From the NCBI GenBank assembly GCA_963733375.1, contig CAVTDB010000026.1:256001-320000 (forward strand): a stretch of 64,000 nt of DNA. Direction: 5' to 3'. The notes under the pieces were generated by a model that was not told the DNA's origin, did not search any database, and worked only from the letters and a program-made list of their open reading frames with translations. The position numbers and the translations under genes are program-made. Below, one piece after another: positions 32,433-41,742 of the stretch (position 1 is its first letter; each line of letters begins with the position of its first letter). The DNA is from Nitrospirota bacterium (GTDB lineage Bacteria; Nitrospirota; JACRHJ01).

Positions 32433-34048
32433 TTATTTTCCAGATGATTTTTCAACCACTTTTACCATGAATTTCGAAACCTCCCCGGCAGGCAGGGCAG
32501 GACTCATTAAATAGCCCTGAATCTCGTCGCAGCCGCAATCCTTCAAAAATGACAACTGGTCCTCGGTCTCGACGCCTTCTGCGGTTACCACCAGATTCAG
32601 ATTGTGCGCTAACACGATAATAGCCTTGATGATAGCTTCATCGCTCGGACTCATGGAGATGTTTTTTACAAAAGAAGTGTCGATCTTCAGGCAGTCGAGC
32701 GGAATCTGGCTCAGGTGGTTCAGCGATGAATACCCCGTGCCGAAATCGTCAATGGAGATTTTAATGCCCATTCTCTTCAGCTTGTATAAAGTGGCAATAG
32801 CTGATTTGGGATCACGCATGAGTGCGCTTTCGGTAATTTCCAATTTCAAATATTTAGGAGGCAGGTTGGCGTTGCGCAGCGCCCGGTCCACGGCCTCAGA
32901 CAAGTTCGCCTGATCAAACTGTCGGTTGGAAAGATTCACCGATACCGCAATCGGCTCATATCCGGCCTCCTGCCAGGCCTTAACCTGCAAGCATGCCGTC
33001 TTCAGCACCCACTCGCCGATTGGTATGATAAGGCCGGTCTCCTCCGCGATGGTGATGAATTTCGACGGCAACACGAGGTCGCCATCGGGGGGATTCCAGC
33101 GCAGCAATGCTTCCACGCCGATTAGCTTTCTATCCGAAAGGGAGTGTATAGGCTGGTAGTAGACAAGGAACTCGTCATTCTTTACGGCCCGGTGCAGCCT
33201 GTCTTTTAAATTCTGATATTCAACAGCAGCGGACGTCATCGATTTAGAATAGAACTGGCAATTGTTTCTTCCTTTTGATTTGGCATGGTACATGGCGATA
33301 TCCGCGTTCTTGAGCAGCTCGTCCACGGTGGTCCCATCATTAGGGTAAAGTGATATTCCGACACTTGTGGTTATGAATACCTCGCGGCCGTCCAAAACAA
33401 TAGGCTCGGAAATGGCATTTAAGATGCGGCTGGCTATTTGATAGGCTTCCTTGGGATGGACAAGATTTTGCACCAGCAAGATGAATTCGTCCCCGCCCAG
33501 CCTCGACATGATATTTTCCGCCTGTACTCGTCCCCACGAGCGACATAATCGGAATTTCTTATCAGGTTGACAAGCTTATTGGTTACGGCTCGCAATAGCT
33601 TGTCGCCTTTATCGTGCCCCAGGGTATCGTTAATGCGCTTGAAATTATCCAGGTCAAGGAAGAGGACCGCCATGGTCAGTTCATGCCGGTCCGCATAGGC
33701 AATCGCATGCTCAAGGAGTTCCTTGAAAAACTGGCGGTTTGGCAGTTTTGTCAGGCTGTCGTAATAAGCCAGATAGCGGATTTGCTGTTCGGATTCCTTC
33801 CGGGTTTGCAGTTCCTGCTTTAGTCTGCTCATTTCGGAAACAAAAACTATCGTTATTCCGACCACTACCAAAGGCACCAATAACGCATCGCCAGCCCCGA
33901 TAACCAGTACTTTGTAAGGAACGTAGCCCCACCATAAATAGCTTTGTATGCAGGACGCTATAAAAGTGGCAATTTCGGATAAAAGTACCCCGATCCAGAG
34001 AAAGTGCCACGGGTTGATCTTTTTTATACTCTCAACTAACCGGCCCAT
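32433..34048 (-). CDS. Membrane-anchored diguanylate cyclase/phosphodiesterase (2TM-GGDEF-EAL), frameshift near 33520
   Basis: DSLTKLPNR, DLDNFKRINDTLGH, RLGGDEF, EALLRW, DDFGTGYSS and AEGVE. Confidence 0.92.
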
Positions 34049-34101
34049 AAATGCCCTTTTATAAATTTTTCGTTAAATAAACAATTTAGACAAGAGCCCG
34101 T

Positions 34102-38100: not shown

Positions 38101-41100
38101 ATAACGCTTTTAATCCGGTCATAGATCTCCCGCATCGAGCTGTTCGCCATGGCCGTGGGGTCAATCTGTTTGCCTTCCGCGTTGTACAGCCTCAAAGCCC
38201 TGACCGCGAACTGCCCGGCCTTGATGGAGTCCAGGTTCAGGTCGTCGAGCAGGCGGTGGTCCATGGATATCGAGTCCACGGGAAAGCCCGTCATTTCCGA
38301 TGCAAGCTTCAAAAGCAGTTCCGGGGCAGCCGCATTTTGCGGAGCTAACGGCATTTCATGCAGGGGGCCGTCCGTTTTTCCGGTTGCGGCGGCGGGAACA
38401 TCCTTAAGGACGATACCCTGCGCCTCGGTCTGTATCAGCCCGCGTATGTAATCTATCTGCTGTCTTGTAAAGAGCCCGGCCGCGTCGTCCGGGCCCAGTG
38501 AGGGGACCAGGGCCGGCCCGATTTCGCGTATGACGACAGAACTCATCAAGGTTTCTTCTTCCGCGGGGACAGAGGAGTGTTCACACTGGTTTTCAATGAA
38601 GAAACGCTTTGAAGCCGGGACAAACGGCCTTACCAGCCGGTTCTCGAAAAGGGCTGTCCAGTTGACTTCGCCTCCGCGTACGAAGTAGCAACCGAGGAAG
38701 ACGTTCAGGGAACGCATGTCTCCCGCTTTCGATTCGACGGGAAGGCAAACCGGCTCATCCGTACCCGCAATGGAATTGGCCAGGTCGGACAAGACGCGGC
38801 CCGGACCTACTTCTACCAGCAGGTCGCATTCCCTCCTCATGTTATTTATCAAGGATATGAAATCTACCGGATGGGTTACCTGCCTTGAAAAATGCCGCTT
38901 AGTGTCGGTCCCGGGACTAACCTCGCTGCCGTCCATCGAAGTCAGCAATTTAATGTCCGTTCCGCTAAGGACATCCGGGATTGGCGCATATCTGAATAAT
39001 TTATCTGCCGCCCCGGCCATCAGCCGCGAATGGAAGGCGTTCGAAACCGGCAGGTATTTCGTTTTTATGTTCGCGAGCGACGCCCGCTTCACCGCTTCCT
39101 CAACCGCCAGCCTCTCGCCGGATACCACTGTTTGAGCGGGGCTGTTGATGTTCGCTATGGTGATGTAGCCTGCGATGTCCCCCAGCAGTTCTTCGGTTTT
39201 CTCCCGGTCGCAGGCGAAGCTGGCCATTGTCCCCGCGTTGTCTTCGGATGCGGAGGTCGCCCTACCCCGGAACGCCGCAAAATCAAGCAGTGTTTCGTCA
39301 TCGAACGCGCCTGCCGCGCGGAATGCCGTCAACTCGCCCAGGCTATGGCCGGCTGCAACGACCGGCCTGATACCCAGGTTCTCCATATGCCGGATCCACA
39401 AGAGCGAAGTCATGCATAAGGCCGGCTGCGCGATATCCGAACGGGACAGTGACTGACGCCACCCGTCCAGCTGGCTATTGTCAATGGCGCGGTCAACCGG
39501 CCGGTAGATATGCTCGTAAATGTTCTCAAATCCTTTTTCCGCCAGCCGCGTTTCGGCCTTCTTCCGGAGTTCCCTGGCCCACCCGTAGCGTTCCGTGATG
39601 ATCCGCCCCATATTCAGTTGCTGAGACCCCTGCCCCGGAAACAGGAAGCCGATGCGTGCGCGCGATACCGTATTTCCAACCCATATATCCTGATGCGGGT
39701 CGAAAGCCGTCCCGCCTTTTGGAATGTCGCCAGCCTTCAGCATCTGCTCCGCGCGGCCAAGACAACTCGACGAGAGCTGCGGGTGCCCCGGCAACCAGGG
39801 CAACCCGAAAATGTTTACCGGCCGGGAGTTCCCGGGTAAGTTCCTTGGACAGGTCTACCATCTCGCCGGTGCTTATCCCCAGGGCGACGCCCTTCAACTG
39901 GGCTATGCGGGCGAGCATTTCCTGCTGCGTCCCGGCGGACAGGACAAAAAGCTCAGTCTCCTGGTACGACGCAAGCAGCTCCCTTTCGCCGATGGAGGGC
40001 CTTATCTGCTCCGCGGGCTCCCCGGCGGACTCGACGGTAACATGGCAGTTAATCCCCCCGAACCCCATGCCCGATACCCCGGCGCGGATGGTGGCGTCCG
40101 CGTTCCGTACCTCGCCCTCTATGACGGGATATATGCCGCGCGCCTTCTCGTTGAATATCGGGTTCGGCTCGCTGCAGCCGGCGGTGGGCGGGATGACGCG
40201 CCTGTTTACCGCCATGACGGCCTTTATGAAGCCGCCTATACCCGAGGCGGCCTTGGTATGCCCGATAAGCGACTTGAGCGACGTGATGCCCAGGGGCCGC
40301 AGAGTTTCCGGGTTGCCACCTTCCATGGCGCTCGCGATACCCTCCAACTCGGCTTTATCGCCTGCGGTAGTGCCTGTCCCGTGGCCCTCGATAAAATCTA
40401 CAGAGTCAAGTCCATACCCTGCCTTGCCGTACGCCCGCCGAATCGCGAGGGCCTGGGTCAGCGCCTTCGGGGCCGTCATGCCGCCCTTGCCGTCGGAGGA
40501 CAACCCCCAGCCCCGGAGGATGGCGTATATATAATCCCCGGCGGCCCGGGCGTCCTGCAGCCTCTTCAATATGACAAACCCGGCCCCTTCGCCAGGAATG
40601 AATCCGCTGGCGCGGCGGTCGTACACCCTCATGTCTTCCCTGGTCAGGGCGTTTGTCTTGGCAAAGCCTATAAGCTCGAAGGTATCGAGGCTGATGTCTA
40701 TCCCTCCCGCTACCGCGAGGTCGAGAGTGCCGGCGGAGAGGGCGTTAGCGGCGGTGGCCACCGCGATGAGAGACGAGGAACAGGCCCCGTCCACAGTGTA
40801 CCCGCCGCCATGCATGTCGAGGAAATTGCAGATTCTGCCGGCAATGGTGTTGGAGAGGTTTCCGGCCAGGGTGTCCTCGGTGATGGGGGCGAAAGCGGAT
40901 TTGTACGACGTCTCCATGCTGCCCAGCAACTCGTCGATGACGGCGGTAGGCAGCCCTTTCTGGGTAGCGGTAGAGGTAAAGACTTTTTTCACGTAGGGCC
41001 AGCGCAGACGCATCTGCTGCGACCGGCTCTGTTCGCCCGTCATGGTGTTCCCGAGGATGACCCCCGAACGGTCGGACGGGATGCTCTGGCGGGTTAAGCC

Positions 41101-41742
41101 CGCGTCTTCCAGGGCCCTGAGCGCGACCTCAAGCGCCAGCCAGTGGACTATATCCGAAGAATCCACGACGGTCTTCGGGATGCCGCGCTTTACCCAGTCA
41201 AACTCGAACCCGTCGATCACCGCCGCACGGTCCCCGTAGGTCTTGTCGGATACGGAGGGGTCCGGGTCGTAATATTCGGAAAGCGGCAGGCGCTGCTCGG
41301 GGATCCGGCGGAACGCTCTTTTTCGGGCAAGTATGTTTTCCCAGAACGATTTTAAGTCCGCGGCGCCAGGGTAATAGCAGGACATGCCTATTACGGCGAT
41401 AGCATCGTGGGATATTTCGGTCTTTATCTTGTAATAAGAAGATTTGTAGAATTTACTGAATTCGGGGGGTGGATTTATTATCTTCAGGCCCATCTCTCTC
41501 AAGGAATTCCCGGCCCGCTTGTCGGTCCATGCCACCTCGCATGACAGTGCCAGGTCTTCTCCCTGCGGGACAGTGAATTTTACTGTCAGCGCCGTTGCAT
41601 TTTCGATAAGGTCTTTCGAATCCGTAATTACATACAAACCTTTTTCTGAAATGCCTACAATGAAAGCCTTAGAGGTCTTATTGCCCCAAATGACGTCGAC
41701 TTCAAAATTGACGGGTATCCTCAGTGTGGTTCGTCTTTCCAT
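34102..41742 (-). CDS. Enediyne-type (PksE-like) iterative type I PKS: PilZ-KS-AT-ACP-KR-DH-PPTase-(TE-TE); split into four ORFs by probable indels near 39765, 37500 and 35120
   Basis: KS GGGYTVDGACSSSL, EGHGTGT, IGHTK and MRLRWPYV; AT FPGQGS/GHSLGE/AFHS; ACP LDDLNLDSI; KR TGGARGIT and YGFSN; DH HLFRGSYLFP and DLYG..LFQG; PPTase SFSH/GCDIE/WCALEALRKA; hotdog TE NIYFANYFRWQG. Confidence 0.88.

Follow-up and report, generated by a model that had tools for sequence, protein, structure and literature searches.

The 64,000-nucleotide (nt) stretch analyzed here (hereafter the window; positions 256,001 to 320,000 of contig CAVTDB010000026.1, assembly GCA_963733375.1, from a Nitrospirota bacterium) contains a single minus-strand gene of about 2,550 codons (34102–41742) that encodes a polyketide synthase (PKS) with a PilZ domain at its N-terminus. 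The predicted domains follow each other in one polypeptide in the order PilZ, ketosynthase (KS), acyltransferase (AT), acyl carrier protein (ACP), ketoreductase (KR), dehydratase (DH), phosphopantetheinyl transferase (PPTase) and hot-dog thioesterase (TE), and the next gene on the same strand encodes a membrane protein with GGDEF and EAL domains. We propose, with confidence slightly above even, that the two genes form a private circuit of the second messenger cyclic diguanylate (c-di-GMP), in which the partner sets the messenger level and binding to the PilZ domain switches the KS via a connecting helix. We put forward a broader claim tentatively, at a little less than even confidence: the locus would be a mobile cassette with its private circuit, making a polyene in anaerobic Nitrospirota and Desulfobulbales-like bacteria, and would represent the first case of direct gating of a polyketide megasynthase by a nucleotide second messenger. 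The gating of enzymes by PilZ and PksE-type synthases are each known; the fusion of the two, with a dedicated turnover enzyme, is new.

A Pfam search started with the first open reading frame (ORF) of the PKS (39526–41742, minus strand, 738 amino acids (aa), N-terminus MERRTTLRIP, the final ~75 residues being out-of-frame read-through) identifies PilZ, PF07238, at aa 2–93, scoring 34.4 bits over the full ORF and 39.0 bits when aa 1–115 are searched alone (gathering score 22.5), as the sequence-only reading of this stretch had predicted. The NCBIfam model TIGR02266 yields a weak match of 30 bits. An AlphaFold2 model of aa 1–113, built from 16 sequences, has a mean predicted local distance difference test score (pLDDT) of 80.8 and consists of beta-barrel strands at 9–88 followed by a long helix at 93–111. 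In a Foldseek search of the PDB with this model, the top 33 listed matches (ranks 1–35) are all PilZ structures, with query TM-scores (TMq) of 0.51–0.74, and include PlzA, MapZ/PA4608, MotI, BcsA, Alg44, YcgR, VCA0042, PP4397 and MrkH. The barrel (aa 1–93) thus corresponds to 41464–41742 and the helix (aa 94–113, PPPEFSKFYKSSYYKIKTEISHD) to 41404–41463, both on the minus strand. The helix has the conserved consensus PPxEFKKFYKxSYYKIKxEIS, with P91 and Y99 invariant and F98 and E109 conserved in at least 90% of the sequences, and joins the first strand of the KS without a flexible linker; the same C-terminal helix ends the nearest stand-alone PilZ proteins. A search of the ESM Atlas with aa 1–200 returns generic ketosynthase fragments alone (0.76), and a predicted complex of the PilZ part (aa 1–111) with the KS part (aa 112–659), run without controls, has a score of 0.00 and a mark of 0.32, which speaks neither for nor against contact of the two.

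PilZ domains are characterized by two motifs, an N-terminal RxxxR and a second motif, D/NxSxxG. The first is present as R4 and R8 in MERRTTLR, and the second reads G-I-S-E-K-G (aa 30–35), with Gly30 in place of the canonical Asp or Asn, a caveat that had been raised from the sequence and that holds. In the 42 homologous fusions with complete N-termini, R4, R8, S32 and G35 are invariant, with an overall domain identity of merely 30–55%. A profile search of 1.84 billion representatives detects 449 matches with E≤0.001, the best 150 of which were compared with the fused family; 149 of these are 65–267 aa long and nearly all are stand-alone PilZ proteins, P0121 and P0122 resembling truncated PKS N-termini. 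Among these relatives, R4 is present in 130 of 149 and S32 in 139 of 149. In the fusions, four of the five motif residues are therefore constrained more strictly than in free PilZ proteins, and the constraint on the fifth is relaxed. This pattern is best compatible with the retention of ligand binding, possibly in an altered form, and this is the main caveat to the proposed function.

The PilZ domain runs into the KS in frame, with no intervening stop (ketoacyl-synt at aa 114–398 and Ketoacyl-synt_C at aa 406–522), and the same in-frame fusion recurs in intact homologues of 2,486–3,218 aa, so that this part of the sequence-only reading is borne out. That PilZ and KS were joined by a chimeric assembly was considered and rejected given these intact homologues and an independent metagenomic contig (X2, record 15) that covers 41409–41743. 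For the homologue search, aa 1–260 were compared with longer proteins, and the best 120 clusters (at 90% identity) were considered. A hidden Markov model built from alignment A3 detects an N-terminal PilZ domain in 47 of these 120 clusters, 42 of them with a complete N-terminus, and 28 of the 47 carry a precomputed PF07238 label. The fused homologues are 2,486–2,703 aa long, or 3,102–3,218 aa where an additional C-terminal flavin amine-oxidase domain is present, and by name they come from Thermodesulfovibrionales, "Nitrospiraceae", Nitrospirota, Desulfurivibrio and metagenome-assembled genomes (MAGs) of Thermodesulfobacteriota. In a FastTree phylogeny of the KS alone (121 rows), a single branch, with a Shimodaira-Hasegawa-like support of 100, sets all 48 PilZ-bearing rows on the same side, and no PilZ-less protein is nested inside the PilZ-bearing clade; the rows were gathered with a PilZ-containing query, so that the sampling favors the fusion clade. 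A single gain, that is, one change on the tree, therefore explains the distribution, and the fusion appears to have originated once and to have been retained for a long time. The full fusion is found in 6 of 400 other species-representative genomes sampled across the phylum, in 17 of 390 genomes from the class of the genome G225, and in none of the 11 further genomes from the class to which the window belongs. The claim of novelty thus stands in part: a full-text literature search found no description of a PilZ domain on a PKS, but the architecture is not unique to the window and defines a clade of at least 47 clusters.

The remaining parts of the protein, all on the minus strand, are mostly recognized by Pfam. 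The KS (40177–41403) is identified with 191 bits for ketoacyl-synt and 107 bits for Ketoacyl-synt_C. The second and third PKS ORFs contain the AT (38808–39647; Acyl_transf_1, 86.9 bits), the ACP with its phosphopantetheine attachment site (38115–38318; PP-binding, 17.9–19.1 bits, below the cut-off of 20.8, although several homologues carry a precomputed PF00550 label), the KR (36800–37342; 85.9 bits) and the DH (35771–36547; PKS_DH_N, 37.5 bits, and PS-DH, 36.4 bits). The Sfp-type PPTase (35096–35752) is identified by fold rather than by Pfam, where ACPS is a weak match (E=0.084): the AlphaFold2 model of the region between DH and TE has a pLDDT of 88.5 and a predicted TM-score of 0.88, and all 33 Foldseek matches with E≤0.001 are Sfp-type PPTases (including PcpS, AASDHPPT, PptT and Sfp). 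The C-terminal part, located in ORF 34102–35127, is a thioesterase with two hot-dog units, fused to the PKS and resembling the E7/E10 enzymes of enediyne pathways (34102–35088, including the stop codon), recognized by Pfam and by PDB sequence matches; in intact homologues of 2,486–2,640 aa the TE belongs to the same ORF. Upstream of the start, a sigma-70-like promoter (41836–41865, minus strand) matches 10 of 12 hexamer positions, as judged by consensus matching alone. The domain order proposed by the sequence-only reading, that of PksE, is hence confirmed, with the qualification that the ACP is weak, and the whole order is found in one ORF in the intact homologues. All the motifs quoted there (MRLRWPYV, LSNTIAGRICN, GGGYTVDGACSSSL, GWGLSSDGKGG, DLYGHMLFQG, GGDEF, EALLRW and DDFGTGYSS) are present in the translations. 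As a separate observation, identity to the closest homologue, P0001, declines along the gene (34120–41742), from 92% over aa 1–663 to 79%, 72% and 67% in the later pieces, which could reflect recombination within the gene or quicker change in the C-terminal domains.

Enediyne synthases of the PksE type share the order KS-AT-ACP-KR-DH-PPTase, and their clusters carry the warhead-cassette genes E3, E4 and E5; the PksE synthase SgcE together with its thioesterase SgcE10 makes a conjugated heptaene. The best match of the AT among solved structures is the AT of DynE8 (4amn, E=2.6e-30). For the TE, the search identifies CalE7 (2w3x, 1.5e-13), the ACP-polyene thioesterase 4i4j, which is SgcE10-like (3.3e-11), DynE7 (3.5e-11) and two further thioesterases, all five with E-values of 1e-13 to 1e-9. 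None of the 60 best solved KS matches is a PksE structure. NCBIfam has no model specific to the PilZ-PKS, and its best matches, PfaA and PKS_plus_SDR, are far below their cut-offs; the homologues are annotated as "enediyne polyketide synthase" (by the Joint Genome Institute, JGI) or "SDR family oxidoreductase". The gene neighborhoods of 24 distinct loci were compared, namely 15 groups, in which duplicates of more than 95% identity were merged, and nine further species genomes. Enediyne cassette genes are not among the neighbors at these 24 loci; the cassette families were not searched for genome-wide. Given that the PKS stands alone without cassette genes, and in view of the chemistry of PksE, a linear conjugated polyene is the likely product, and not an enediyne. 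The enediyne-type label of the sequence-only reading fits the PKS, and the TE is of this type too, but the locus is not an enediyne cluster, as it has no conserved cassette genes alongside.

An oxidase and a methyltransferase-like gene accompany members of this PKS family and are reported here in their own right. A flavin amine-oxidase or CrtI-like domain recurs with the family (P0020, P0041–P0047; L038:10463-12010, L042:4843-6381, L021:6044-7750); it is fused C-terminally in the forms of 3.1–3.2 thousand aa, including the PilZ-less P0077, P0112 and P0115, and in two genomes it is a separate gene of 513–516 aa with the GGDEF-EAL gene on one side and the PKS on the other. This oxidase is probably a polyene-tailoring enzyme and is absent from the window. 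A methyltransferase-like gene of 385–393 aa overlaps the 3' end of the PKS at two loci (L018:17773-18927 and L029:17760-18938), with weak Pfam scores of 23.5–23.7 bits.

The partner gene (32433–34048, minus strand) starts 53 nt from the PKS stop codon (34102–34104), as had been noted, and in the assembly is represented by two ORFs, 33434–34048 and 32433–33509. Pfam identifies GGDEF with 98 and 68 bits (33261–33769) and EAL with 255 bits (32499–33203). Intact orthologues are 538–544 aa long. Hydropathy analysis indicates two hydrophobic segments, aa 15–35 and 43–76, and there is also a coiled stretch, so that the protein appears to be membrane-anchored, with no recognizable sensor domain; four aligned orthologues of this length have these features as well. 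The motif RLGGDEF is intact in the window and in all four aligned orthologues; in the alignment that includes the window, EALLRW is found in five of five sequences, DDFGTGYSS in four and DDFGIGYSS in one. The inhibitory I-site of such enzymes is an RxxD motif five residues before GGDEF. No RxxD was found there by eye: the orthologues have EQKD, ESPD or AELD, and the window is frameshifted at the site.

The pairing was counted in the 16 species genomes that have at least 1.5 kb upstream of the PKS. In 14 of these, an orthologous GGDEF-EAL gene is located no more than 2.1 kb from the PKS, with E-values of 1e-134 to 1e-150 for the EAL half. Since a phylum-wide search with the EAL half detects matches with E≤1e-60 in 275 of 401 genomes, orthology was judged by adjacency. 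In the window the arrangement is tandem, with the GGDEF-EAL gene downstream; in 11 genomes it is divergent, with this gene upstream (G225, G008, G420, G419, G418, G422, G584, G564, G578, G579 and G580), and in two (G576 and G567) it is divergent with the 513–516-aa gene for a flavin adenine dinucleotide (FAD) oxidase in between. The neighbor highlighted in the sequence-only reading is thus a conserved companion of the PKS, but the tandem order described there is unusual and the divergent upstream position is the usual one. With just four GGDEF genes above the cut-off in the window's genome, chance adjacency is unlikely. Among the metagenomic contigs, one of the four that could be assessed has a GAF-GGDEF gene at the position of the partner. 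G192, G397, G464 and G605 were left out of the count because their contigs end at the PKS. In G192, the PKS starts 79 nt from the contig start (G192:C32:1-79), and a 59%-identical orthologue of the GGDEF-EAL gene is present on another short contig (G192:C84:4111-5145); the two contigs may be neighbors, which would make this the fifteenth paired genome. The window's genome (2.39 Mb, 81% complete) contains seven PilZ-domain matches along with the four GGDEF genes, and the locus supplies one of each.

The hypothesis that we favor is that the membrane-anchored GGDEF-EAL enzyme would set the local level of c-di-GMP, which would bind the PilZ domain at its RxxxR and xxSxxG site. The rigid helix could then relay the ensuing rearrangement to the KS, or else to the dimer or ACP-docking surface of the latter, thereby turning chain synthesis on or off in a manner resembling the gating of BcsA by PilZ; the PKS would release a linear conjugated polyene. 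Ligand binding, like the way in which the switch turns and the nature of the product, is an inference, and several observations weigh against this hypothesis. A sequence profile of the domain reaches PilZ proteins among PDB sequences (PA4608) with an E-value of only 1.2–1.7, and unrelated proteins rank higher. Position 30 of the fused family is N in 14, S in 13, D in 8, G in 6 and E in one of the sequences, so that the canonical D/N is found in just 22 of 42, compared to 144 of the 149 stand-alone relatives (N in 131 and D in 13), which points to a relaxed or altered ligand contact. As regards the partner, G375 and G184 have no GGDEF gene within reach of the PKS but histidine kinases and response regulators beside it, and three of the four assessable metagenomic contigs carry PAS histidine kinases and sigma-54 response regulators and no GGDEF gene. 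Furthermore, the paired genomes are kin, five belonging to one genus and four to another, so that fewer independent events underlie the pairing than 14 of 16 would suggest. The pairing reflects few independent lineages, yet it persists over three gene arrangements and with each of the four main residues that occupy position 30. At the loci without a nearby GGDEF gene, PAS or 7TM (seven-transmembrane) histidine kinases and a sigma-54 response regulator are encoded (L026:842-4270, L026:12696-15167, L029:6748-9201 and L019:9349-11136), and in these lineages the PKS may be under two-component control.

The replacement of the canonical D/N, seen in 20 of the 42 fused domains but in just 5 of the 149 stand-alone ones, and with Gly in the window, is what would be expected if the PilZ domain, at least in the forms with Gly or Ser at position 30, no longer senses c-di-GMP and is instead a structural, dimerization or docking module, for instance a tether to the membrane GGDEF-EAL protein or to some other partner. 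Non-binding PilZ proteins do serve in type IV pilus systems. To our knowledge, however, such proteins lack the RxxxR motif, whereas here R4, R8, S32 and G35 are retained in 42 of 42 sequences, more tightly than in the stand-alone proteins, and a pure scaffold would have no reason for keeping them; moreover, the conserved partner belongs to the c-di-GMP-turnover enzymes and has its catalytic motifs intact. We consider the loss of sensing unlikely, albeit worth keeping in mind. It is also conceivable, but in our view rather improbable, that c-di-GMP does bind and governs the location or the partner of the synthase and not its rate, e.g., through recruitment to the membrane for the delivery of a hydrophobic polyene. 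The membrane anchor of the partner, its lack of a recognizable sensor, and the hydrophobic character expected of a product of PksE chemistry would all fit; the entry of the PilZ helix into the KS without a flexible linker fits transmission within the enzyme better than it fits a free tether. Finally, the enediyne-type PKS and TE, and the JGI label, could be taken to indicate a genuine enediyne producer with the warhead cassette elsewhere in the genome. This we regard as scarcely credible, given that the recurrent neighbors across the 24 loci are the GGDEF-EAL gene, signaling proteins, the FAD oxidase and the methyltransferase alone, and that in the window the two genes are an island amid housekeeping genes (the search for cassette families having been confined to such neighbors). 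Compared to these alternatives, the private circuit remains the interpretation that we prefer.

Both genes are interrupted in the assembly, a point at which the sequence-only reading had merely hinted: its claim of an unbroken PilZ-KS join stands, but there are three frameshifts further along the PKS and one in the GGDEF-EAL gene. The PKS is cut into ORFs 41742–39526, 39803–37422, 37519–35021 and 35127–34102, and a tblastn search with the intact homologue P0001 (2,579 aa) spans 41742 to 34120 of the window as four pieces in frames -2, -3, -1 and -2. Comparison contigs X1–X4 from four public metagenome runs (one soil and three peat), which are 90–99% identical to the window at a depth of 2.8–5.3, are free of the extra bases at all four break sites. 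At frameshift 1 (39764–39815, minus strand, located by the change of tblastn frame), there is one extra base, and 1 nt is missing at 39764 in X1 or at 39767 in X3. Frameshift 2 (37497–37642, minus strand, located likewise) also involves one extra base, with 1 nt missing at 37497 in X1 or at 37501 in X2, X3 and X4. Frameshift 3 is a garbled stretch (35097–35118, minus strand), where 7 nt are missing at 35101–35117 in X1, and 58 nt replace 20 in X2 and X4; the deletion and the replacement restore the identical frame. The single frameshift of the GGDEF-EAL gene is near 33525, where contigs X2 and X4 are without 2 nt. Record 10 of X2 (33798–35275) independently spans the junction between the 3' end of the PKS and the GGDEF-EAL gene. 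Elsewhere in the same genome, domain 6 of rpoB is scattered across three frames and rpoC is broken by a stop (G000:C26:82189-85262); in the window, serA and cydA are each split into two ORFs (28017–31925 and 42985–44392, respectively). Because rpoB, rpoC, cydA and serA are split as well and the related contigs are without the extra bases, the breaks are read as assembly indels, and those in the PKS and the GGDEF-EAL gene look like assembly errors and not like decay. Given the frequency of such errors, ORF-based gene calls in this genome are unreliable. Four breaks within 9.3 kb, at sites that are not long homopolymers, might suggest a decaying pseudogene pair in which the frameshifts are real mutations of this organism, and the comparison contigs come from related strains and not from the window's own reads. 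Nevertheless, this explanation is highly improbable and real frameshifts are unlikely, considering that rpoB and rpoC are essential, that every break is of the extra-base type, and that the four PKS pieces contain no in-frame stops and are 67–92% identical to intact homologues.

The two genes and the region upstream of the PKS constitute an island (32331–41937), as delineated by comparison with a genome of the same genus, G039. In that genome, the block of purA, tRNA and terminator (94.8% identical) and the block with the fur promoter (92.1%) are 114 bp apart; in the window, they are separated by 9,607 bp that comprise exactly the PKS, its upstream region and the GGDEF-EAL gene. In a second genome of the genus, G030, the divergence begins directly after the tRNA terminator. 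The adjacent tRNA is tRNA-Lys(UUU) (32211–32286, plus strand; Rfam tRNA, 63.8 bits, and ARAGORN). Inspection by eye reveals no flanking direct repeats at the island. Judged by this comparison, the GGDEF-EAL and PKS genes appear to have been gained or lost as a unit beside the tRNA gene; the locus is best explained as a horizontally moved, self-contained two-gene module. An Rfam search of the window at gathering thresholds identifies two tRNAs alone and no c-di-GMP riboswitch.

The closest functional parallels are BcsA and Alg44, in which a PilZ domain likewise resides inside a biosynthetic machine; the domain described here also has the RxxxR motif as well as Ser and Gly in its second motif, and the PilZ model matches the PilZ domains of BcsA (4hg6, 4p00 and 9fnn) and Alg44 (4rt0 and 4rt1) with TMq of 0.60–0.65. 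In contrast to these proteins, the enzyme that would be gated is a cytosolic iterative PKS and not a membrane glycosyltransferase, and the PilZ domain is N-terminal, is joined to a ketosynthase and has Gly first in its second motif; gating is in this case a proposal. The systems SgcE/SgcE10, CalE8/CalE7 and DynE8/DynE7 share the domain order, with the AT nearest to that of DynE8 and the TE nearest to CalE7, 4i4j and DynE7. They differ in that the protein described here has an extra N-terminal PilZ domain, a fused and doubled TE, and no cassette genes nearby, and in that its hosts are anaerobic Nitrospirota and MAGs of Thermodesulfobacteriota as opposed to Actinobacteria. The nearest relatives of the domain itself are stand-alone PilZ proteins of the MapZ/PA4608 type and TIGR02266 paralogues, which have the same C-terminal helix; whereas these are free adaptors, the module described here is fused to an enzyme and its D/N position is less strictly kept.

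Links between c-di-GMP and secondary metabolites have been described at the level of transcription, through BldD in Streptomyces and through Clp and YajQ-LysR in Lysobacter (PMC7005675, PMC6988422), and in the accessible text of the literature found, control of polyketides or antibiotics by c-di-GMP is transcriptional alone. These regulators act via DNA-binding receptors, whereas here the synthase polypeptide itself contains the receptor domain. Enediyne-type KS domains have been reported from non-actinobacterial phyla, including anaerobes, with their role left open (PMC10308959); the accessible part of that article does not mention PilZ. Direct PilZ gating is known for polysaccharide synthases, and a receptor inside an iterative PKS would extend post-translational control by the messenger to megasynthases. 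If the proposed circuit is real, the polyene could be an antioxidant lipid or a lipid of the membrane, a physiological meaning would emerge for the "enediyne-type" PKS genes that are as yet unexplained in anaerobes, and PKS engineering could gain an allosteric on/off switch of natural origin. Our results suggest that the orphan synthases of anaerobes that resemble enediyne PKSs, as far as the accessible part of the survey describes them (PMC10308959), make a lifestyle-linked polyene rather than a cytotoxin.

The island is flanked by genes for tRNA-Lys, PurA, SerA and an aminotransferase on one side and by fur, rubrerythrin and cydAB genes on the other. The latter form an oxidative-stress set located immediately upstream of the island in the divergent orientation (42003–45405), which encodes a Fur-family regulator, rubrerythrin and subunits I and II of cytochrome bd oxidase; just the fur part is syntenic in G039. 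A link between these neighbors and a possible antioxidant polyene would be speculation. The gap between the rubrerythrin gene and cydA (42940–43050) contains a sequence of some 100 nt with matches on both strands, which occurs in dozens of copies in genomes of the same genus and the same family (56 matches in G030, 57 in G039 and 30 in G073) and looks like a palindromic intergenic repeat similar to repetitive extragenic palindromic (REP) or miniature inverted-repeat transposable (MITE) elements.

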